Positions 1,448-60,271 of a stretch of 64,000 nt of DNA are shown here, piece after piece. The position numbers and the translations under genes are program-made. The notes under the pieces are model-generated. The model searched no databases and was not told where the DNA came from. It saw nothing but the letters and a program-made list of their open reading frames with translations. Every line of letters begins with the position of its first letter. Positions within the stretch are counted from its first letter, which is position 1. Source of the DNA: an uncultured cyanobacterium (GTDB lineage: Bacteria > Cyanobacteriota > Cyanobacteriia > Cyanobacteriales > CAWCAG01); assembly GCA_963793425.1 (NCBI GenBank), contig CAWCAG010000009.1, forward strand, positions 352,001 to 416,000, written 5' to 3'.

Positions 1448-2923
1448 TTATCCTACCTGAATATCCTTAACCCTTACGGGTACACAAGCATGAGTCATTT
1501 GGGCTAATTGCATGGGTTCCCCTTTACCACAAAAGGAAGTGCCGCACTGCCTCATTTGAGAAGCAGATCCAATTCCATCTACCTGATGCCAAAAATCTGT
1601 AGTCATGCTGTGATAGGTAACATTTTTCAACATACCCACAACTTTCCCGCCCTCAACTTTCCAGAAAGCATCACCACCAAACTGGAAATTACGACGCTGT
1701 TGATCAATAGAAAAGCTACCAATACCATCAATAAGAATACCATCTTCAGTATCAGCAATCATCTCTTCTAAAGTGGCTGTATGGCTGCCTCCTTCTACTC
1801 CTGGTTCTAAACCAAGATTGGGAATCCGTACCATCGGGACACTCGCCCAACTATCAGCATAGGAACTACCATTGCTGCTATCTCTACCCAAGCGGTAAGC
1901 GGTTTCCCGATCAGTGAGATAGTCTACCAAAATGCCATCCTTAACCACATACCATTCTTGGGACTTAACACCCTCGTCATCGTAACCCATAGTTCCCCTA
2001 CCGCCCGGTTGGGTACGATCTGCCTTAAAATTAATCCAAGGGGCCGCGTAGGCTAATTTTCCTAACTTATCAGTGGTGGCAAAGCTAGTGCCAGCAAAGT
2101 TAGCTTCGTAACCATAAACTCTATCTAACTCTGTAGGATGCCCCACAGATTCGTGTATGGTTAGGTAAAGGTTACTAGGTTTGAGAATTAAAGTTGTCGC
2201 CCCAGGAAGGGTTTCTGGTGCGCTAACCTTCTCAATTGCCTCTTGAGCAACTCGTTCAATATTACCCAGCAAATCAAGTTTATCAATATGTTCGTAACCT
2301 AAATTGAGGGGAGGGCGTTCATAACTACGACTTTGGGCATCTCCATCTGCGATCGCAGTGCAACCAAAGCCAGGATGACTACGGTAAATAGTTTGTTGAA
2401 TTAAAGATCCTTCCGTGGAAGCAAAGGTTTTCTCCTCTTTAGTAAAACTCAGGAAAGAATAGGCTTTTTTAATCCCTTCATTTTCGTAACCAAGTAACTG
2501 TTCATTAATCTCCAACAACAACCGGGCTTTCTCCCCAATAGAGACAGTAAAAGGGTCTATTTTAATAGGAGTAGTATAACTATCTTCATAAGACTGAACT
2601 GGTACTAACTTAACAGGTTGCTGTTGCGAAAGACGACTACCTTTAGCAGTTTCCACCGCTAAATTAACCACCCTCATTACTTCTTCTGGACTTTTCCGAT
2701 GGCTAGCCGCAAACCCCCAAGCCCCCTGGAGAAGGACTCGAACCCCAAAACCAGAACTAAGATTATCTGCTAAGTTTTTCAAGGAGCGATCACGGGCCAT
2801 TAAATTCTGTTGGCGATAGGTGCAAAGGCGTATATCTCCGTACTCGCAACCTGCCTGACGAATTAAATCTATAGCTAAGGAAGCGAGTTCTTTTGTTGTA
2901 GTTCGTAGAGGAGTTTGTACCAT
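1448..2923 (-). CDS. tldD: TldD/PmbA family metalloprotease (TldD-type)
   Basis: GFGVRVL, HESVGHPTELDR zinc motif, YDDEG, C-terminal CGKGEP. Confidence 0.88.
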   Translation of the reverse strand: MVQTPLRTTTKELASLAIDLIRQAGCEYGDIRLCTYRQQNLMARDRSLKNLADNLSSGFGVRVLLQGAWGFAASHRKSPEEVMRVVNLAVETAKGSRLSQQQPVKLVPVQSYEDSYTTPIKIDPFTVSIGEKARLLLEINEQLLGYENEGIKKAYSFLSFTKEEKTFASTEGSLIQQTIYRSHPGFGCTAIADGDAQSRSYERPPLNLGYEHIDKLDLLGNIERVAQEAIEKVSAPETLPGATTLILKPSNLYLTIHESVGHPTELDRVYGYEANFAGTSFATTDKLGKLAYAAPWINFKADRTQPGGRGTMGYDDEGVKSQEWYVVKDGILVDYLTDRETAYRLGRDSSNGSSYADSWASVPMVRIPNLGLEPGVEGGSHTATLEEMIADTEDGILIDGIGSFSIDQQRRNFQFGGDAFWKVEGGKVVGMLKNVTYHSMTTDFWHQVDGIGSASQMRQCGTSFCGKGEPMQLAQMTHACVPVRVKDIQVG

Positions 2924-3160
2924 AATTTAAGCAATTTTCTTGGGTTGAAGATGCCTTCGTTCGGGATAAATAATCAAGGGTAGTTCCTTGACTATTTAAC
3001 TTTCACCTATTTTAGTAACACAGTTTAAATATGAAAAGTGTATGAATACTAGCTTCTAAAGCAAGATCGTGAAGACAATAGTCATTTCTACTAGCTATTA
3101 GCCACTAGCCGTTAGCAAACACCAGAATCTAGGCTGTACCTCACGCTTACTCTTGTTTTG

Positions 3161-4099
3161 CTATAGCACAGCAAAAGTACTTTGGGCAAAAGAGACTTTT
3201 TCAGAAATGGTTGTTAGTTTGCCTCGAACCTCATCTATTGCCTCTAGCCGGGGAATCAACCCTGCTTGGTTAGCAATTTGAATCGACAAGCCCGGACGAG
3301 CATTAATTTCTAAAAGCAAAGCCCCTTTTTCCTCATCAAGAACAAAATCCACCCCTAAATAACCAAACTCAGTTTTGTCACCCAAAGTTGCAGACATTTC
3401 TAAAATCTTTTCCCAACCAGGAATAGATAACCCAGCTAAAGGACTGCCAGTTTCAGGATGTTCTTTAAGATAACGATTATGCTGAATCGCAGCTAGGGTT
3501 TTACCCGTAGCTAAATCTATCCCAACCCCAACCCCACCTCGATGAAGATTTGCCTTACCATCAGAAGCACGAGTGGGCAAACGCAACATCGCCATCACCG
3601 GAACTCCATGATAAATAATTAGGCGCAGATCCGGAACTCCTTGATAAGCGACATCTGCAAACACAGGGTCAAACTGTACCGCATATTCAATGATAGCAAC
3701 ATCCTTATGACCAGAAAGAGAAAACATCCCACTCAAAATGTTATGAATGTGGTAGTGCAAATCCTCTGGCTTAAGCACAGAATCATTACTTTGACGATAT
3801 CCTGCCTCTACAGCATCTTTAATCACAACAATGCCGTCCCCTCCACTACCCCGTGATGGTTTAATCACAAAAGTATTGTGTTCTTCAACTAAATCTCTCA
3901 AACCTTTAACTTCGTTTTGAAACTGTATCACACCATAGGTTTCAGGGATGCTAACACCAATATTTTCGGCAATCTTTTTGGTTTCTAGCTTGCTGTCTGC
4001 ATATTGATAAAGTCGTCGGGGGTTGCAAGGAAATAAATAATCTAAATTACGGCTATTGACACCAAGGATGCCATGGTTTTGAAACAAAAATGACTGCAT
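3161..4099 (-). CDS. Alpha-L-glutamate ligase-like ATP-grasp protein (RimK-related)
   Basis: LGVNSRN N-terminus, FVIKPSRGSGGDG, GVPDLR, ANLHRGG, LEINARPGL. Confidence 0.85.
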   Translation of the reverse strand: MQSFLFQNHGILGVNSRNLDYLFPCNPRRLYQYADSKLETKKIAENIGVSIPETYGVIQFQNEVKGLRDLVEEHNTFVIKPSRGSGGDGIVVIKDAVEAGYRQSNDSVLKPEDLHYHIHNILSGMFSLSGHKDVAIIEYAVQFDPVFADVAYQGVPDLRLIIYHGVPVMAMLRLPTRASDGKANLHRGGVGVGIDLATGKTLAAIQHNRYLKEHPETGSPLAGLSIPGWEKILEMSATLGDKTEFGYLGVDFVLDEEKGALLLEINARPGLSIQIANQAGLIPRLEAIDEVRGKLTTISEKVSFAQSTFAVL

Positions 4100-6442: not shown

Positions 6443-7969
6443 ATGCTAGCTAGGGTTTGGAGTGCATCTATTGTTGGTATTGACGCTGTTAAAGTTGGTG
6501 TGGAAGTTGATGTCTCAGGAGGGCTGCCGAAAACCGTAGTAGTAGGTTTACCGGATGCAGCAGTTCAGGAATCGCGGGAAAGGGTAAAAGCAGCCTTAAA
6601 AAATACAGGTTTCGCCTTTCCGGGGGGAAACATCGTCATCAATCTTACCCCAGCAGATTTGCGTAAAGAAGGCCCTAGCTTTGACTTACCCATTAGTGTA
6701 GGAATTTTAGCTGCTTCAGGACAAGTAAACGCCCAATTATTGGGGGACTATTTATTTTTAGGAGAAGTTTCTTTAGATGGCAGTCTTCGTGCCATTGCTG
6801 GGGTTTTACCCATTGCTGCCAATGCCTCTAAGTCTGGTATTGCCGGTTTAGTTGTTCCGGCCAACAATGCCCAAGAAGCAGCGGTGGTAAATGAGATTTC
6901 TGTCTATGGATTTGAACATATCTCAGAAGTTGCCGACTTTCTTAACCAACCGACTAAACATAAACCCATAGCCTCAAACCCCCAAGAAAAATTAGGGCGA
7001 TCCCAGGCTTATGAACCAGATTTAAAAGATGTTAAAGGACAAAACCATGGCCGTCGTGCCTTAGAAATTGCGGCTGCGGGGGGACATAACCTCATTTTAG
7101 TGGGGCCGCCCGGTAGTGGAAAAACCATGTTAGCCAGACGCTTACCAGGAATCCTGCCGCCATTAAGTTTTCAAGAAGCCTTAGATGTCTCCCAAATCCA
7201 TTCCGTAGCTGGTTTTCTCAAAGATAAGGGTTCTTTAGTAACTGAGCGTCCTTTTCGTAGTCCTCACCACTCTGCTTCTGGCCCTTCTTTAGTAGGCGGG
7301 GGAAGCTTTCCCCGTCCCGGAGAAATATCCTTTGCCCATCGGGGAGTACTATTTCTCGATGAGTTAACAGAATTTAAACGCAATGTTTTAGAATTCTTGC
7401 GCCAACCCTTAGAAGATGGCTTCGTCGCCATTTCTCGCACTCGCCAATCTGTCATCTTCCCTTGTCAATTCACCCTCGTCGCCAGCACTAATCCCTGTCC
7501 TTGCGGCTACTACGGCGACCCAATTCAACAGTGTACCTGTTCTCCTCGCCAAAGGGAACAGTATTGGGCCAAACTTTCTGGCCCTTTAATGGATCGCATC
7601 GATTTACAAGTATCTGTCAATCGCCTCAAACCAGAAGAAATGACTCGTCAAACCACAGGAGAAGAATCTGAACCAATCAAAATCCGAGTGCAAAAAGCCC
7701 GCGATCGCGCCTCTCAACGTTTCCAAGCAGAAAAAATTCAGTGCAATGCAGAAATGAAAAGCCATCACCTACGTAAGTTTTGTCAACTTGATGATGCCAG
7801 TCGTAACATCTTGGAAGGGGCGATTCGTAAATTAGGTCTTTCCGCTAGGGCGATGGATCGGGTTTTGAAAGTAGGACGAACTATTGCTGATTTAGCAGGG
7901 GAGGAAAATATGCAAACTTCTCACCTTGCTGAGGCAATTCAATATCGTACCTTAGATCGGGTTCAGTAA
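6443..7969 (+). CDS. comM: YifB/ComM Mg-chelatase-like AAA+ ATPase
   Basis: GLPDAAVQESRERV, GPPGSGKT Walker A, PFRSPHH, LFLDE, NPCPCG. Confidence 0.92.
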   Translation: MLARVWSASIVGIDAVKVGVEVDVSGGLPKTVVVGLPDAAVQESRERVKAALKNTGFAFPGGNIVINLTPADLRKEGPSFDLPISVGILAASGQVNAQLLGDYLFLGEVSLDGSLRAIAGVLPIAANASKSGIAGLVVPANNAQEAAVVNEISVYGFEHISEVADFLNQPTKHKPIASNPQEKLGRSQAYEPDLKDVKGQNHGRRALEIAAAGGHNLILVGPPGSGKTMLARRLPGILPPLSFQEALDVSQIHSVAGFLKDKGSLVTERPFRSPHHSASGPSLVGGGSFPRPGEISFAHRGVLFLDELTEFKRNVLEFLRQPLEDGFVAISRTRQSVIFPCQFTLVASTNPCPCGYYGDPIQQCTCSPRQREQYWAKLSGPLMDRIDLQVSVNRLKPEEMTRQTTGEESEPIKIRVQKARDRASQRFQAEKIQCNAEMKSHHLRKFCQLDDASRNILEGAIRKLGLSARAMDRVLKVGRTIADLAGEENMQTSHLAEAIQYRTLDRVQ

Positions 7970-53438: not shown

Positions 53439-53827
53439 ATGGACCCTATCACTACAGCAATTGTCGCTGCCCTAGCTGCTTTGAGTAAAGATGCGATTAA
53501 AGACGGTTACAATGCTCTTAAATCTACTTTGAAGAAAAAGTTTGGCTCAGAAAGTGATCTAGTTGATGCTGTTGAAAAATGGAAAAGAAGCCGGATTCCG
53601 AGGGTCGTAAGGCGATGGTACAGGAAGAAGTTGAAACAGCTAAGGCTAATGATGATACTGAAATTGTACGATTAGCTCAGGAATTGCTAGAGCAAATTAA
53701 AGAACAACCAGGCGGGCAACAAATCATCACCCAAAATATCAGTAACGTTAAATATGCTGCTACCTCTGGTTCCGGTAGTGCTAACATTAGCAACATTACT
53801 GAGCAGAGTAAATCTGAGGACGACTGA
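53439..53827 (+). pseudogene. Bell-like helical domain protein with C-terminal amyloid-like motif, frameshifted
   Basis: MDPITTAIVAALA..KDGYNALK..LKKKF; 1-nt loss near 53580 (AAA T GG AAA AG; restoring gives EKLEKKPDS); tail ITQNISNVKYAATSGSGSANISNITE. Confidence 0.7.
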
Positions 53828-53855
53828 GATTAGTTTAATTGCCAAAGTAGCTGAT

Positions 53856-54860
53856 ATGTCTGAGCAAGAGGAGATTAAGCAAAGGGTCACAGAGGCTGAG
53901 TATGCTGCCACCTCAGCTACTGGTGATGCCAATATCACCATTACTAATCGGTGGTAATTATCAGTAGATTATTTTTGACGGCTAAGGAACGACAGAAACA
54001 AGCTGAGCTGAGTGAAGCTGACTCTCTGGCTCGCTATTCACTGTCTTTGCTGAATGAAGAGAAGAATTTGGATACTTTCGTTGAAGTAATCAGGGCAGGA
54101 AAAATCCTGCAAAAATAGAAGAAGCAAGATCCGGAGGTGGTGAGCGCTCTAGCAGCACATATCTACCAACTTAGGGAACTCAACCGTTTAGAAGGACATA
54201 ATGACTTAGTTTAGTCTTGATAGCAAGCTACTCGTTTTCGGAAGTGGTGAAACCAAACGACTATGGATATAGGCCAGCGTAAGTTTCAGCCCAGATGGTG
54301 AAACCTTGGACACGCTACTGGTAGTGTGAGATGATACTATCAAACTCTGGAATGTCGAGACAGGAGAAGAAATTCGCACTCTCAAAGGACATACTAGCTG
54401 GGTCTGGAGCATAAGTTTCAGTCCAGATGGTCAGATATTGGCTACTGGTAGTCATGACAAGACTATCAAACTCTGGAATGTTGAGACGGGAGAGGAAATT
54501 CGCACTCTTGAAGGACATGATGCTTGGGTTTACAGTGTAAGTTTTAGTCCAGAGAGTGAAGCCTTGGCTACGGGTAGTAAAGACAATACCATCAAACTCT
54601 GGAATGTTGAGACGGGGGAAGAAATTCGTACTCTTAAAGGCCATGATGACTCAGTCTGGAGCATAAGTTTCAGCCAAGATGGTCAGACTTTGGCTACAGG
54701 AAGTCTTGACAATACCATCAAACTATGGGGAGGGAAAATAGGCTGGAGCTTGGATGAGATAATGGAGCGAAGTTGTGATCGCATCCGCAATTACTTAAAG
54801 TACAATCCCAACGTCAAAGAAGAAGATAAACGCTTGTGTGATGGTATTGGTAAAATTTGA
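53856..54860 (+). pseudogene. NLR/STAND-like WD40 protein remnant (N-terminal motif retained, NTPase absent)
   Basis: MSEQEEIKQRVTEAEYAATSATGDANITITN; then linker ...IRAGKILQK*(54116-54118)...RELNRLEGH; WD40 repeats; C-terminal CDRIRNYLKYNP...LC. Confidence 0.75.
54330..54730 (+). repeat. 126-bp WD40-encoding tandem repeats
   Basis: CAAACT(C/A)TGG anchor recurs at 54341, 54467, 54593, 54719. Confidence 0.9.
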
Positions 54861-54895: not shown

Positions 54896-55315
54896 ATGAT
54901 GAATGCAAAACTTATGGTTCAGCCGTCATTTTTTATTAATGCTGGCATTCAAATGAAATTAGTCAGAGGGCTTTATCTTTTTAAGTTCAGTGATGGCTTA
55001 CAAGAGCGATTGGAAACTCTCAACGAGAAGAAAAGAGAACTAAGTTTGATACCCAGTGAAGAAGTAGAACTTACTGGAATTCTTGAGTTTAGATCGAATT
55101 TGCAGCCTTGTCAAGCCAAAATGTATTTATGAGTAGAGATAAGAATGACTACTGGGGCAAAGATTCAGTGGAGGTGGAGAATGACAAATATCGCTTGAGT
55201 AATTCACTAATAGAAGACAGGCACAGAAGTTTATACCCAGTGAAAAAGTAGAAGCTGCTGGATCAGATTGAATTTTCACCTTACTCAATGCCAAAATTAT
55301 TGCTGAGTCAAGATA
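54896..55315 (+). pseudogene. Small antitoxin-like gene upstream of HNH, frameshifted with partial tandem duplication
   Basis: LFKFSDGLQERLETLNEKK..EEVELTGILE; ATACCCAGTGAA...GATAAGAATG segment occurs twice (about 55040-55150 and 55225-55325). Confidence 0.5.
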
Positions 55316-55318
55316 AGA

Positions 55319-55448
55319 ATGGCTATTGGGAGAAAGATTCGACAGCAGGTTCGAGAAAGGGCTGAATATCTCTGTGAGTATTGTCACTCATCAGAAGAGG
55401 CCAGTGCTGCAAAATTTGAGATTGATCATATTCAACCACGTTCTAAAG
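55319..55448 (+). pseudogene. HNH endonuclease 5' fragment
   Basis: MAIGRKIRQQVRERAEYLCEYCHS...FEIDHIQPRSK; cut off where the PPTase gene 3' end begins. Confidence 0.75.
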
Positions 55449-56150
55449 CTCCACTGCTTGCCAATAACTTACCCTCATAACTTCTCCTCCGGCAGCCACT
55501 GCACCAAAATAATTTTCTCCCAACTGAATATCTTCTAGAAACCAACCAGGAATATTAATTAAGTTTGCTGGCTCTTCTGGTAGCAAAGAAACTTCTACTC
55601 GTTCTAAGCCTCCTCCTAAGCCTTCTCCTGTAGCTTTTAAATAAGCTTCTTTGCGAGTCCAAGCGCGAAAAAAAGCTTGTTTTTTTTCTCTGGGCGGTAA
55701 GCGATTTATAACATCCTGTTCCCTTGGGGAAAAGAAGCGTTGGGCAATTTGCTCTACAGGTTTAGTTTGATTAAATCCTTCTACATCAACTCCTACTGGA
55801 AAGTTCTTGGTTACCGCATAAAGAGCTAAATTTTGAGAATGAGAGAGATTAAAATGTATTTGCTCTCCTTTTAAATAAGGCTTACCACGCTTTCGATAGC
55901 TAAACTGTAACTGGCTAGGTTCAACTTCTAAATAAGCACCAAGGATTTTTCTTAACATTCCTCGACAAGCAATGAAGCAAAGACGATCTTTTTGAAAATA
56001 GAAACGTTCTGCCCGATGTTGTTCTTCTGGGCAAAGCAATTGAGCTAGTTCTTGTATTTTAAACGAAGGCTGAGTTAATGAGAAGCGCCAAATATCAAGA
56101 GTGCCGTCAGATAAGACTAGTTTCTCAGGAACAGGTTGCCAGTCAAGCAT
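55443..56150 (-). CDS. Sfp/HetI-type 4'-phosphopantetheinyl transferase
   Basis: GKPYL, FNLSHS, VGVDVE, WTRKEAYLKATGEG. Confidence 0.93.
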   Translation of the reverse strand: MLDWQPVPEKLVLSDGTLDIWRFSLTQPSFKIQELAQLLCPEEQHRAERFYFQKDRLCFIACRGMLRKILGAYLEVEPSQLQFSYRKRGKPYLKGEQIHFNLSHSQNLALYAVTKNFPVGVDVEGFNQTKPVEQIAQRFFSPREQDVINRLPPREKKQAFFRAWTRKEAYLKATGEGLGGGLERVEVSLLPEEPANLINIPGWFLEDIQLGENYFGAVAAGGEVMRVSYWQAVEL

Positions 56151-56509
56151 TTCGTCTCACTACAATTGGTAGTTAGCTATTAGCCACTAGCAACTAGCCA
56201 CTAGCCATTAGCCCACTAAATCAAAAAATATCTTGTCTCTACGGTTCTACATTAGTTAACTTAGGGGAGATTAGGGAAAAATAAATTAGAACTTGTTAAA
56301 AGTTAAGGGAGTTTGTTTTTTTGATGAAGATTAAATAAAGTGCAGCCAAGCAACAAAAGCCTGTGACACAATTATGGAGGAATATGTAGAGGTAGGTTCT
56401 AGTAAATCTATATTGTTATCTAAAATAATATAAATCACCCCTCCCCTACTTAAGGATACGAAGCCTCCTATAGCCAATCCACCGAAATTGACCTTTAATT
56501 CTTGGAGTC

Positions 56510-58354
56510 ATGAAGATGACGCAAAGCCCTACAAATTCAACAGTTAGGGAAGACCAACCGGCTACACTAGTAGAATTGTTACGTACTAGAGCAGCTCAAC
56601 AAAGCGACCAGCTTGCTTATACATTTTTGATAGATGGTAAAAGAGAGGGGGCTTGCGTAACCTATTCCCAACTCGATGCCCAAGCTAGGGCGATCGCCGC
56701 TTATTTGCAAAAGAATCAAGTTAAAGGAGAACGGGCCCTTCTTCTTTATCCCCAAGGTGTTGAGGTGATAGCAGCCTTCTGCGCCTGTCTCTATGCTGGG
56801 GTGATTGCTATCCCTGTCCCTCCCCCAGAATCTGGGCGGATGAAGCGGACTTTACCGAGATTGAGGTCAATTGTCAAAGATGCCCGCGCTTCTCTTGTTT
56901 TGACTACGGGCAGAATTTTGGAAACCATTGTTGATGTCCAGGAGGAGTTTCCTGAATTTGAGACAATGGAATGGATCGATACAGAAAAAATTGATCACCA
57001 ACTAGGGGAAAAATGGCAAGATCCTCAAATAGATCAAGAGGCGATCGCCTATCTTCAATATACTTCCGGTTCTACTTCCACTCCTAAAGGGGTAATGCTC
57101 ACCCACGGTAATTTGGTATTCCACTGCGGCAACCTACAAAAAGCCTGCGGTTATAACGATAGTAGCGTTACTGTGACTTGGATGCCCTATTTCCATGATT
57201 ATGGTTTAGTTGAAGGGTTGATGGTTCCTTTATTTAATGGAACTCCTTGTTACATCATGTCCCCCTTCGCCTTTGTTAAGCGTCCTTTACGGTGGTTACA
57301 AAGTATTAGTAAGTATCAAGCTACCCATAGCCAAGCCCCTAACTTCGCCTATGACCTTTCGGTACGCAAAATCAAACCCAAGCAATTAGAAACTTTGGAT
57401 TTGAGTTGTTGGGAAGCGGCTGGAAATGCGGCGGAACCCATTAACCCCAAGGTGATGGAGAAGTTTTATGAAACCTTCGCCTCAACTGGTTTTCGTTGGA
57501 ATGCCTTTGCCCCAGCCTATGGTTTAGCTGAAGCAACTTTGTTAGTTTCTACTAAGCCCAAATTAACTGAACCAGTAATTGGTTACTTTGATTCTCAAGC
57601 TTTGGAACGGGATAAAATTGTGACCGTTAGTCAGGATGGAGAAGGGGTAAGAACTATTGCTAGTTGTGGCCAGTTAGTGTGCGAAACTCAAGTAGCTATT
57701 GTTAATCCTGATAGCAAAAAGCGTTGCGACCCTGATGAGGTGGGAGAAATATGGGTTTCTGACAAGAGTGTTACCCAAGGTTATTGGGAACGCCCTGAAG
57801 CCACAGCAGAGAATTTTAATGCCTACATTGCTGATAGCCAAGAAGGGCCGTTTTTGAGGACGGGGGATTTAGGTTTTTTGCAAGAAGGGGAACTTTATAT
57901 TAACGGTCGGATTAAAGATTTGATTATTATCCACGGCACAAATCATTATCCCCAGGATATTGAGTGGACGGTACAACAACTACATCCCGAACTTCGCCCT
58001 GATTATGGTGTAGCTTTTTCCATTTTAGTGAGGGGAGAAGAAAAGTTAGTGGTTGTTCAAGAAATAGAACGTCGTGCCAAGGATATCGACCCTGAAGCCA
58101 TGTTACCGGAAATTAAGCAAGCGATCGCCGAGGAACATGAATTGCAAGTTCATGCTTTGGTGTTAGCAAAACCAGGCAACATTCTTAAAACCTCTAGCGG
58201 CAAGATTCAACGCCGCGCCTGCAAAGCGAGTTTCTTAGCCGGGGAACTGGGGGTGGTTGCTGATTGGAGTGAAAATCCGCAAATTACCGCAAAATTTCGT
58301 GACTTGGAAGGAGAAGTAGAATCTTTAGCAGCTAGTATAAAAACCAACAAATAA
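56510..58354 (+). CDS. Fatty acyl-AMP ligase (FAAL)
   Basis: YLQYTSGST, HDYGLV, PNFAY, AEPI, YGLAEATL, LRTGDLG, KTSSGKIQRRAC. Confidence 0.92.
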   Translation: MKMTQSPTNSTVREDQPATLVELLRTRAAQQSDQLAYTFLIDGKREGACVTYSQLDAQARAIAAYLQKNQVKGERALLLYPQGVEVIAAFCACLYAGVIAIPVPPPESGRMKRTLPRLRSIVKDARASLVLTTGRILETIVDVQEEFPEFETMEWIDTEKIDHQLGEKWQDPQIDQEAIAYLQYTSGSTSTPKGVMLTHGNLVFHCGNLQKACGYNDSSVTVTWMPYFHDYGLVEGLMVPLFNGTPCYIMSPFAFVKRPLRWLQSISKYQATHSQAPNFAYDLSVRKIKPKQLETLDLSCWEAAGNAAEPINPKVMEKFYETFASTGFRWNAFAPAYGLAEATLLVSTKPKLTEPVIGYFDSQALERDKIVTVSQDGEGVRTIASCGQLVCETQVAIVNPDSKKRCDPDEVGEIWVSDKSVTQGYWERPEATAENFNAYIADSQEGPFLRTGDLGFLQEGELYINGRIKDLIIIHGTNHYPQDIEWTVQQLHPELRPDYGVAFSILVRGEEKLVVVQEIERRAKDIDPEAMLPEIKQAIAEEHELQVHALVLAKPGNILKTSSGKIQRRACKASFLAGELGVVADWSENPQITAKFRDLEGEVESLAASIKTNK

Positions 58355-58390
58355 TACCAAGACAAAATTAACAAAAAAATGTCTCAAACC

Positions 58391-58420
58391 CTACTCCCTA
58401 CTCCCTACTCCCTACTCCCT
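58391..58420. repeat. Heptamer tandem repeat (CTCCCTA)n
   Basis: CTACTCCCTACTCCCTACTCCCTACTCCCT. Confidence 0.85.
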
Positions 58421-58462
58421 GCCCTAACCAATCAACTCTGCAAACAAACACAAACTTAAAAT

Positions 58463-60271
58463 ATGCATCCCTTAAAACGATATTGGGTCGCAGAAACCTT
58501 AGAAAAAGACTTAGGCGCACCCACAAACCCCAACAGTAAAGTCTCTTGGCAACGTACCGCCGAGTTAGATGAAAAAGAAGAGTTCCCCCAGGCAGAAGTT
58601 GACTGGCTTTACAACTGGAAACTGCAACATTACTACATTCCCAGTGAATACGGTGGCGAATTTACTAACTTTGAAGAATTTGTTGCTTTTGTGAGAGTGC
58701 TTTCTCGCCGGGATCAAAATGTAGCGATCGCCTTTACTACTATGTTTTGGTCTTATTTATGTTGGATGGCAGGAACCCCAGAACAGAAAAAGAAATTGGC
58801 TAGTCTCATGAAAGATGAGAACGAAACCATGTGTCTGGCTTATTCGGAAAAAGAACATGGTAGCGACTTGGTAGGGGGAGAAACCACAGCCACAAAAGTT
58901 CCTGGAGGTTACTTACTTAACGGGGAAAAATGGCCTATTAACCGCGCCACCCGTTCCGGTACAACTTTTGTGATTGCCCAAACCGACCCAGAAGGGGGAA
59001 GCAGAAGCCTTTCTTTATTTATGGTGGATAAGCGGGAATTAGACAAGTCTCAATATTACAACCTGCCCAAAATCCCTTGTCATGGCATCAAGGCTGCGGA
59101 TATGAGTGGTATTGGTTTCACAGATTGTTTTATCCCGGAAAGTACCCTGTTAGGGGAAGAAGGGCAGGGTTTAGAATTGGGGCTGAAAGGTTTCCAAATT
59201 ACTCGTACCCTCTGTGCTGCTTTTTCTCAAGGGGCGGCTGATACCACAGTTCGTACTACCTTGAAACTTGCTTTAAATAGAATTGTTTACGGCAAAACGG
59301 TTTTTGACTTACCTTTGCCTCGCCGCATTTTAGTAAACGCTTTCTTAGATATATTAATCTGCGATTGCGAAGTAATTGCCTCAGCTAGGGGATTTAGCGT
59401 CGTCCCTCAACAATTTAGTGTTTGGGCTTCGGTGGTTAAATATTTCGTTCCCATCACCTTGGAAAATATGATCAACGGCCTCTCTTCGGTATTAGGGGCG
59501 CGTTTCTATTTCCGGGATGAACATGACTCTGGGGTTTTCCAAAAAATGCTCCGGGATAACTCTATTATTAGCATCTTTGATGGTAGTGGACTGGTTAACC
59601 TCCACGCCTTGATTTTGCAATTCCGTCAAGTTGCGAAACAGCGCAGTCGGCTTAATGAGAAGAAGAAAAAGGCCTTAGCATCCCGTCTGGAAACAATCTT
59701 TACCCTCAACCAAGAAGTTCCCCCCTTTGACGGTAGCAAGCTAGAAATTTTTGGCCGTGGTGCAGATGACCCCATGCAAGGTTTAGAATTATCCCTGGCT
59801 AAGTTAGAGAAGTGGCAAAATAATCCTGATGTTGACCAACAGGTACTTAAATATCTTTTGCAATTAACTAGCAAAGTAGGAGCAGAAGTTAATGATATGC
59901 ACGAAACTTTTGCTAACTCAAGCTTTGAGTTTGGTCATGACCAAACTCCAGAGTCTTTTGAATTAGCGAAAAAGTACTGTGCTTTGCACGCTGCTAGTTG
60001 CTGCATCCATATGTGGGTTTATAACCGCACCAACTTAGAAGTATTCTTTGCCCAAGGAGAATGGTTGGTTTTGGCTTTAAATAAGCTACTCAAGCCCTAT
60101 CATCCTAACGAAGAGTTGATTTTACCAGATTATGCGGAAAACCTTGCCCAAGAACTGGTTAAGCTTTATAACCAAGACAAGCTCTTTTCCATTGTTCCTT
60201 TCCAATTAGCACAAACCCAATCCCAGGAGAATAAAAAAGATGCAAGTTCAGAATTACAACTCCAAGCCTAG
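58463..60271 (+). CDS. Acyl-CoA/acyl-ACP dehydrogenase
   Basis: YSEKEHGSDL, LNGEKWPIN, SIFDGS near the catalytic position. Confidence 0.88.
   Translation: MHPLKRYWVAETLEKDLGAPTNPNSKVSWQRTAELDEKEEFPQAEVDWLYNWKLQHYYIPSEYGGEFTNFEEFVAFVRVLSRRDQNVAIAFTTMFWSYLCWMAGTPEQKKKLASLMKDENETMCLAYSEKEHGSDLVGGETTATKVPGGYLLNGEKWPINRATRSGTTFVIAQTDPEGGSRSLSLFMVDKRELDKSQYYNLPKIPCHGIKAADMSGIGFTDCFIPESTLLGEEGQGLELGLKGFQITRTLCAAFSQGAADTTVRTTLKLALNRIVYGKTVFDLPLPRRILVNAFLDILICDCEVIASARGFSVVPQQFSVWASVVKYFVPITLENMINGLSSVLGARFYFRDEHDSGVFQKMLRDNSIISIFDGSGLVNLHALILQFRQVAKQRSRLNEKKKKALASRLETIFTLNQEVPPFDGSKLEIFGRGADDPMQGLELSLAKLEKWQNNPDVDQQVLKYLLQLTSKVGAEVNDMHETFANSSFEFGHDQTPESFELAKKYCALHAASCCIHMWVYNRTNLEVFFAQGEWLVLALNKLLKPYHPNEELILPDYAENLAQELVKLYNQDKLFSIVPFQLAQTQSQENKKDASSELQLQA

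Follow-up and report, generated by a model that had tools for sequence, protein, structure and literature searches.

A Decayed HetE-N/nSTAND1-WD40 Gene Pair in an Uncultured Cyanobacterium and Its Shared Terminal Tag, a Candidate Amyloid Signaling Motif

Organization of the Locus

The subject of this analysis is a pair of broken neighboring genes at 53439-54860 of a 64,000-nucleotide stretch (the window) from an uncultured cyanobacterium (GenBank assembly GCA_963793425.1, contig CAWCAG010000009.1, positions 352,001 to 416,000). Gene 1 encodes a small HetE-N, or Bell-like, helical effector that ends in a short tag, and gene 2 is what is left of an nSTAND1-WD40 receptor, opening with a matching tag. 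All features of the pair lie on the plus strand. An original prediction, made from the letters of the window alone, had read the two genes as a Bell-like effector and a WD40 NLR-like (NOD-like receptor-like) protein linked by a candidate amyloid signaling motif, both since broken.

Gene 1 as a whole spans 53439-53827, from an ATG at 53439 to a stop codon at 53825-53827. Its 5' part (53439..53579) encodes the N-terminal 47 residues of the effector; it opens with MDPITTAIVAALA...KKKF and stays in frame through K47 (53577-53579), where the frame breaks. This part alone exceeds the Pfam gathering threshold for HetE-N (PF20701; 28.2 bits against 25, E 2.3e-6), with residues 1-51 covering positions 1-52 of the 102 in the profile. 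An alignment with 21 intact homologues, which read ...EKLEKK..., places an apparent 1-nt loss at 53580..53581. These homologues continue ...VEKLEKKPDSEGRK at the site; the base that the window lacks behind 53579 is therefore the first T of a Leu codon. The 3' part (53582..53827) completes the helical domain and adds a QPGGQQ linker, the tag at the C-terminus, and the stop codon, all in a shifted frame that starts EKKPDSEGRK...

The relatives of this effector are numerous and uniform in size. A protein search with the 3' part gave 174 homologues at E<=0.01; PF20701 was present in 120 of 120 among the matches listed, most of them 124-139 residues long. The open reading frame (ORF) of the 3' part (query 53579-53824) is 87% identical to the intact 129-residue proteins P0001 and P0002. 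Intact homologues have 129-134 residues and begin M-D/E-P-I-T/S, followed by a hydrophobic helix. When the 21 homologues are aligned, the helical part is variable and the tail, ...QPGGQQII.Q.ISNVKYAATSG.G.A.IS.I.E, is best kept; SNVKYAATS (S55-S63 of the 82-residue query) is invariant in 22 of 22 aligned effector sequences. For another effector homologue, P0104, the ESM Atlas returned HetE-N clusters alone. The gene 1 match is the single HetE-N match in the window's genome, which holds no other HetE-N gene.

An AlphaFold2 model of P0001, built from a 46-row alignment, has a mean predicted local distance difference test score (pLDDT) of 74.7 and a predicted TM-score of 0.63. Five helices are predicted, at residues 3-13, 18-35, 40-50, 55-68, and 74-89, with block-mean pLDDT values of 80-90 across residues 1-90. 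The tag, residues 103-129, is predicted to be disordered (pLDDT<50).

Gene 2 follows after a spacer of 28 nt (53828..53855). It starts with a 33-codon stub (53856..53957) that holds the receptor-side tag (53865-53948) and nothing else of the receptor; it translates as MSEQEEIKQRVTEAEYAATSATGDANITITNRW and ends at 53955-53957 in a TAA made by a deletion. Residues 1-31 of five intact receptors match 53856-53948 at 81-88% identity (tblastn). At the deletion junction (53947..53949) about 1442 nt are gone, comprising the linker and the whole nSTAND1 NTPase, some 490 codons. The size was taken from an intact relative from the same taxonomic order (L062), in which window 53672-53947 corresponds to 1501-1782 and window 53949-53983 to 3225-3259, so that 1442 nt are missing between 53947 and 53949. 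This length is not divisible by three, and receptor residues ~32-521 are without counterpart in the window; residues ~522-606 resume at 53948-54205 in another frame, with 59% identity to the receptor of locus L004 (tblastn).

Beyond the junction lies a middle remnant (53949..54214), derived from the segment between the NTPase and the repeats and interrupted by stop codons at 54116-54118 and 54212-54214. The repeat part (54276..54860) has about four WD40 repeats and a conserved C-terminal tail; its intact ORF is 54438-54860, and the frame is interrupted upstream. Pfam finds WD40 there at E 4.9e-34 in three stretches, and 54276-54851 aligns with the last ~190 residues of intact receptors. The original prediction had thus placed both the opening of gene 1 through KKKF and the WD40 end of gene 2 correctly. 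Neither the stub nor the middle pieces of gene 2 gave a Pfam family match, including to nSTAND1 (PF20703), and a scan of six window pieces against NCBIfam gave no family above its cut-off and no match to an effector-associated domain (EAD).

Elsewhere in the window's genome nSTAND1 is matched 12 times at E<=0.001, and 7 of these matches exceed the cut-off; a six-frame pattern search found none of these proteins to carry the tag. One such locus (L048, C5:2133550-2137743) joins a CHAT-like protease region, an nSTAND1 domain (370 bits), and WD40 repeats in one reading frame that is broken by a single TGA (ORFs 388-2124 and 2131-4044). It is either a pseudogene or a sequencing error.

The Shared Tag

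The effector-side tag occupies 53717..53812 and reads QQIITQNISNVKYAATSGSGSANISNITEQSK; the core that it has in common with gene 2 is 53717-53791. This core aligns without gaps over 25 residues with 53865-53939, at 12/25 identical and 18/25 similar residues (BLASTP, E 6e-7). When the gene 2 peptide was shuffled 5000 times, no shuffle attained the observed score of 63 (mean 22.9, maximum 45). In nucleotide terms the two cores agree at 46 of 75 positions, and different codons are used for 6 of the 12 identical residues. It is therefore at the protein level that the likeness is kept. The matched pair is therefore where the original prediction had seen it, at the C-terminus of gene 1 and the N-terminus of gene 2. 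The core of its consensus, YAATSxxGxANI, is present as well, but the motif extends over ~23-26 residues rather than ~12, with the common pattern Q-x2-I-x-Q-x-[IV]-[ST]-x3-Y-A-A-T-S-[GA]-[ST]-G-x-A-x-I. A relaxed form of this pattern has four matches in the six frames of the 5.28-Mb genome, and the window's two are the only ones in open frames.

Segments from the effector side (20) and the receptor side (22) were combined into a 32-column profile. I4, Q6, A14, S17, and A22 are invariant, and Y13, A15, T16, G20, and I24 are kept in at least 90%. The composition of the core (alignment columns 4-26) is 66.8% Q/N/S/T/G/A and 19.3% I/V, with 3.0% K, 0.2% P, and no L. Among 1,835,955,588 representative proteins the profile found 45 at E<=0.001, 13 of them at E<=1e-10, with the tag either at residues ~4-35 of long proteins or at ~95-130 of 130-residue proteins. 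Both copies are kept across many cyanobacterial families. Pfam was run on 31 of the matches: nSTAND1 proteins account for 20/31, of which 13 have WD40 and 3 have pentapeptide repeats, HetE-N proteins for 3/31, and 4/31 are short proteins with no family at E<=1e-5. In one protein, P0156 (292 residues), the tag is internal and follows a COR-B domain. P0163 looks like a gene-call fusion, and P0143 and P0160, which are unrelated repeat proteins, are probably false matches. A complex prediction with two copies each of receptor residues 1-45 and effector residues 88-129 gave no usable answer, with a score of 0.05 against a mark of 0.32.

Intact Pairs in Cyanobacteria

A scan of one genome per species recovered 46 related loci, all of them cyanobacterial where the phylum is given. 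In every one a large ORF on the same strand follows the effector gene, at a median distance of 31 nt (range -8 to 301, n=44). Six of six full-length partners scanned consist of the tag, an nSTAND1 domain (PF20703, E 1e-108 to 1e-125, residues ~56-460), and repeats; there are 8-14 WD40 stretches, except in L041, which has weaker WD40-like repeats. No third conserved gene was found around the pairs, the commonest flanking family being pentapeptide-repeat proteins at 12/44 loci.

Two types of tag occur in these pairs. Type A (..SNVKYAATS..), the window's type, is carried by the effector at 30 loci, and type B (..QTQTNT.SG..VGG.F.F.PVQ) at 16. The adjoining receptor carries the same type in 46 of 46, a count that takes in L014, where the receptor ends after the tag, L036, where the partner has 346 residues and a degenerate tag, and L040, where the tag is divergent. 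The expectation that intact homologous pairs with co-conserved motifs would exist has accordingly held.

On the effector side, a tree of the helical domain (45 rows, without L039, which was too short) puts the number of changes in tag type at 9, with at least 4 on well-supported branches. The NTPase tree has 5 such changes, at least 4 of them on supported branches; this tree has 41 rows and leaves out L032 and L038 (too short), L036 (no NTPase), L014, and L039. In four of four independent contrasts the partner changes in the same way. Two loci from Microcoleus, L005 and L031, have nearly identical helical domains and different tags. Similarly, at L041, L042, L044, and L045 a type-A receptor body (..NYYYREEARLV..) stands behind a type-B tag, and the effectors are type B. 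The tag is therefore an exchangeable cassette whose two copies are held alike by selection.

The tag is also a portable cassette, found in other protein contexts. A CHAT protease protein, P0169 (348 residues), ends in a type-A YAATS tag. In P0137, a HetE-N effector of 158 residues from a metagenome, the YAATS tag is followed directly by a second one (QTNT..F.PVQ), giving types A and B in tandem; this effector may be addressable by two receptor types. Other arrangements include a HetE-N domain followed by a DUF900 hydrolase (P0164, 479 residues), a HetE-N start fused directly to an nSTAND1 NTPase without any tag (P0167, 330 residues), and the partner at L036 (7108-8145), an N-rich protein without NTPase that is opened by the degenerate tag copy.

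A second tag-only stub was observed at L014 (Microcystis aeruginosa W13-11, ~7000-7760). Here the effector gene is intact, the receptor frame ends shortly past the tag to leave a stub of ~40 codons, and a transposase-like ORF lies ~80 nt further downstream. The outcome is the same as in the window and the lesion is different.

Classification of the Effector and the Tag

Comparisons with published work, here and below, refer to the available portions of the sources cited. Bell domains are described as ~120-140 residues long, with an acidic residue at position 2-3, a hydrophobic N-terminal helix, and a five-helix bundle (Dyrka et al. 2020, 10.1101/2020.01.06.895854). The motif families BASS1-10 were defined in the same study from Bell C-termini and the N-termini of neighboring NACHT/NB-ARC proteins; the motifs are ~25 residues long, rich in Q/N/G/V/I, poor in K/P/L, and prone to form beta structure (10.1101/2020.01.06.895854). 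The composition of the present tag is alike, with a larger share of A, T, and S than in the published account.

Supplement 1 of PMC8086366 lists, as entry C02_s182, a sister effector with a type-B tail and the same QPGGQQIINQT linker. The authors' Bell set therefore includes this effector family, and type B is one of the BASS motifs that they list. Gene 1 and its homologues are thus assigned to the Bell domain both by the listing of the sister protein in published Bell/BASS data and by their features: 129-134 residues, an acidic residue at position 2, a hydrophobic helix, and a predicted five-helix bundle. The original prediction of a Bell-like effector is confirmed to this extent.

No such listing was found for type A. 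The words YAATS, KYAAT, NVKYA, SNVKY, and AATSA have no occurrence in the searchable part of the BASS training and validation sets of PMC8086366. The tag sequence does not appear in the available text of 10.1101/2020.01.06.895854 either, a comparison outside which that paper's Table S2, profile hidden Markov models, and 117 MEME motifs fall. A full-text literature search on tag sequences returned unrelated papers only. By eye only, the tag resembles BASS training cluster C09 (..ASGERAVAIGGNASGNTISTGD..). The original prediction had failed to recognize the motif among described families, and within the searchable BASS1-10 sets and the preprint text it is indeed absent. A likely reason, which we infer from the domain scores of the partners, is that the receptors of these pairs fall below the Pfam NACHT/NB-ARC thresholds. 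The YAATS tag probably represents a BASS-like and apparently undescribed motif family.

State of the Locus in Close Relatives

The reality of the lesions can be judged from a congener and from metagenomes. In the same-genus genome G001 (L060, C11:566368-569587) the frameshift site reads DKLEKKPDSEGRK without a break. The first ~65 codons of the gene 1 orthologue are kept there, the sequence then diverges, and the rest of the module is absent; this remnant adjoins a 417-residue transposase-like ORF on the opposite strand.

Further contigs close to the window come from four runs (X1-X4) of one sediment-metagenome study. They are assembled contigs, not raw reads, with a word share of 0.47-0.60, and they may come from other strains. 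The junction of the NTPase deletion is spanned by contigs in all four runs. At the frameshift site the picture is different. In X1 and X2 the major contig (depth 20.8 and 8.95), which is found in X4 as well, connects 53579 with 53844. This 264-nt deletion takes away the remainder of gene 1 together with its tag, and the left end of the deletion allele is the frameshift site itself. One contig from X4 (depth 4.58 of 21.7) carries an additional T after 53579 and is thereby put back in frame. The suggestion in the original prediction to inspect 53580 and about 53950 therefore had two outcomes: the junction near 53950 is present in all four runs, but the missing T of the frameshift is found in one X4 contig.

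Differences extend into gene 2. In all four runs there is a C instead of G at 54118, which removes the stop codon at 54116-54118; 54213-54273 is missing, as are 5 nt at 54309 and 1 nt at 54329. A minor contig of 1876 nt (depth 6.75) has 8 differences and 2 gaps across 53748-53948 and continues past 53948 with YYYREEAKVS, the normal continuation of an intact receptor. Window segments 53580-53843 and 54213-54273 are absent from the major relative contigs and present in minor ones. Several deletions are polymorphic at this locus within a single habitat. Among close relatives the module has been lost repeatedly: the effector has the frameshift or the 264-nt deletion, the receptor has lost its NTPase, and in the sister species an insertion sequence has intervened.

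Interpretation and Alternative Explanations

Templating of an amyloid fold from an immune receptor onto a cell-death effector is established in fungi and mammals. To our knowledge, such signaling has only been predicted in cyanobacteria, and its bacterial demonstration is limited to one Escherichia coli antiphage system.

The locus is probably what remains of a two-gene module for cell death or immunity, of the BASS-pair kind and now dead; by analogy, the tags of such a module would act by amyloid templating. A tag match between the C-terminus of an effector and the N-terminus of a receptor, encoded by adjacent collinear genes, is what marks a BASS pair, and it is seen here. The receptor is an NLR-like STAND NTPase with repeats in the intact partners; in the window the NTPase has been deleted. 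Across genomes, sequence comparison shows that the tags are held to the same type even through type swaps. The window's own module cannot work, because the NTPase is lost and the remainder of the receptor out of frame, the effector is frameshifted as read, and the genome has no other tag.

In intact relatives, the product of gene 1 is a HetE-N/Bell helical executioner of ~130 residues with a C-terminal tag of ~26 residues that is predicted to be disordered. Gene 2, ~30 nt downstream, begins with the same tag and continues with an nSTAND1 STAND NTPase and WD40 or sometimes pentapeptide repeats. The repeats would sense a signal and the NTPase would oligomerize. The clustered N-terminal tags of the receptor may then fold into a cross-beta nucleus, which would template the matching tag of the effector; the N-terminal hydrophobic helix of the effector would thereby be freed, leading to membrane damage. 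These steps are proposed because of the analogy with HET-S/NWD2 and Bab/Agp, for which such a mechanism has been shown, the latter as described in the available text of 10.1101/2024.11.07.622273.

Several observations weigh against this interpretation. The partner NTPase scores 18.5-20.1 bits with the NACHT profile against a cut-off of 26.7 in three of three cases, and NB-ARC was not listed at E<=10 in three partner NTPase regions, so that the nSTAND1 pairs lie outside the operational definition of the 2020 screen, a receptor with Pfam NACHT/NB-ARC. Foldseek gave no match to the effector model in the PDB at E<=0.001, and the best hits of a wide VIA-align comparison (Z 5.8) were designed helical minibinders and nothing specific; fold comparisons thus returned generic helical bundles only, with no match to HeLo, MLKL, or Bab. 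The sign test on the independent contrasts gives p 0.125 and cannot become significant with four, and related loci are not independent of each other. The NTPase deletion is secure, but the single-base frameshift is insecure, and for several lesions among the repeats the metagenome contigs and the window disagree. Amyloid behavior is attributed to the tag by analogy.

Part of this can be weighed further. The requirement for NACHT/NB-ARC is a search criterion, not a mechanistic one, as the partner in BASS11, Agp, is not an NLR. The original prediction had looked to nSTAND, NACHT, or NB-ARC domains in intact partners; nSTAND1 with WD40 repeats was found in all six full-length ones scanned, but the NACHT/NB-ARC thresholds are not reached. 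Its claim that both genes are broken stands for the 1442-nt loss of the NTPase, but the 1-nt frameshift is perhaps a strain variant or an assembly error. It is in fact an appreciable possibility, to which we give somewhat less than even weight, that part of the decay is non-biological: the frameshift and some of the stop codons and indels would be assembly or polishing errors where co-existing strains differ, and the effector would be intact but orphaned. The X4 contig with the frame-restoring T, the coincidence of the frameshift site with the end of the 264-nt deletion, and the differences of all four runs at the stop 54116-54118, the segment 54213-54273, and the 5 and 1 nt beyond it agree with such errors. 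On the other side, the comparison is with assembled contigs of one study and that word share, perhaps from other strains, and the NTPase deletion, which by itself is fatal to the module, is present both in the window and in all four runs.

The way in which the tags act is a separate matter. They could be homotypic docking peptides that recruit the effector, for example by beta-strand addition in the manner of EADs, without prion-like amyloid templating. This would account for the comparative data equally well, as the 46 matched pairs and the cassette swaps need mutual recognition of the tags and nothing more, and EADs provide a precedent in which one module is found on an NTPase and on the adjoining effector (PMC7159879). 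EADs, however, are small folded domains, and the tag has ~26 residues and is predicted to be disordered. Its composition is that of BASS motifs, its position is exactly where BASS motifs sit, and the type-B sister tag on the same effector family is listed among them. Docking without templating is unlikely. That the likeness of the tags arose by chance, or by recent local duplication or gene conversion, and has no function is hardly credible. The match is short and its residues (S/T/G/A/N) are of low complexity, but the shuffles never attained its score, both copies persist across cyanobacterial families, half of the identical residues differ in codon, and a database of 1.84 billion yields 45 matches at two fixed positions. 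Matched tag types, shuffles, profile specificity, and codon differences together refute this explanation. The idea that the 33-codon tag-only stub served as a constitutive seed that forced inactivation of the effector has been weakened, because L014 has a tag-only stub beside an intact effector gene.

With amyloid templating in a BASS-type module as the preferred reading, the wider significance lies outside the window. The locus is itself non-functional, and it points to a well-populated family of pairs, 46 loci in species-representative genomes. The nSTAND1 clade of the receptors lies below the Pfam thresholds for NACHT and NB-ARC, the families that the original screen used. The evidence is about evenly balanced on a broader proposal, that YAATS is an undescribed BASS family devoted to nSTAND1 receptors, missed if the 2020 screen relied on these thresholds, and that it serves as an exchangeable address label by which cyanobacteria rewire receptor-executioner links through cassette exchange. 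Near-identical effectors and receptors that bear either of two tags, always matched, amount to a natural specificity experiment.

Downstream Surroundings

The region behind gene 2 contains debris. At 54896-55480 there is a 78-residue ORF with no family match, a pair of short fragments that resemble each other (..SRDKNDYWGKDS.. and ..SQDKNGYWEKDS..), and a 53-residue piece of an HNH endonuclease (PF01844, E 3.8e-5). Then, at 55443-60271, come a 4'-phosphopantetheinyl transferase on the minus strand, an AMP-binding enzyme like fatty-acyl-AMP ligases, and a protein resembling acyl-CoA dehydrogenases. They suggest the margin of a lipid or polyketide-type biosynthetic cluster that has no connection with the tag pair.

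Comparison with Known Systems

One known counterpart is the HET-S/NWD2 pair of Podospora anserina. The logic is that of the present pairs: the N-terminal motif of an NLR with WD repeats has its match in the prion-forming region at the C-terminus of a helical effector, which forms pores and whose gene adjoins that of the NLR. There is no sequence relation between the systems, the fungal effector has two pseudo-repeats, and the fungal NTPase is a NACHT; a fold relation between HetE-N and HeLo was not detected in the Foldseek and VIA-align comparisons.

Among BASS pairs, a function has been demonstrated for Bab/Agp (BASS11) alone, in E. coli, where it acts against phages; the tag of the receptor templates that of a Bell-like effector, leading to abortive infection (10.1101/2024.11.07.622273). 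It differs from the present pairs in its motif, in its enterobacterial host, and in its sensor, Agp, which has PIN and GreA/B-C domains in place of an NLR architecture.

Two other groups of systems share parts of the design. The nSTAND1 conflict systems (Kaur et al. 2021, PMC8195603) have the same NTPase clade, occur in multicellular bacteria, and use variable effectors. In the part of that paper available, their effector or adaptor domains are fused, whereas here a short tag is common to the receptor and a separate Bell-like protein. EADs (Kaur et al. 2020, PMC7159879) are small modules that a core NTPase and the effector of an adjoining gene both carry. Their distribution follows the same logic, but they are folded domains, and the tag is short and predicted to be disordered.

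The closest likeness is to the BASS1-10 Bell/NLR pairs. The nSTAND1 domain below the NACHT threshold and, in the window, the state of the pair as pseudogenes set the present system apart from these. It has in common with them a small helical effector, acidic at position 2-3 and with a hydrophobic first helix, the placement of a ~25-residue tag at the effector's C-terminus and the receptor's N-terminus, and the occurrence of the tag on a CHAT effector as well. In both, the genes are collinear neighbors with a tiny spacer, and the receptor combines a STAND NTPase with WD repeats, in cyanobacteria.

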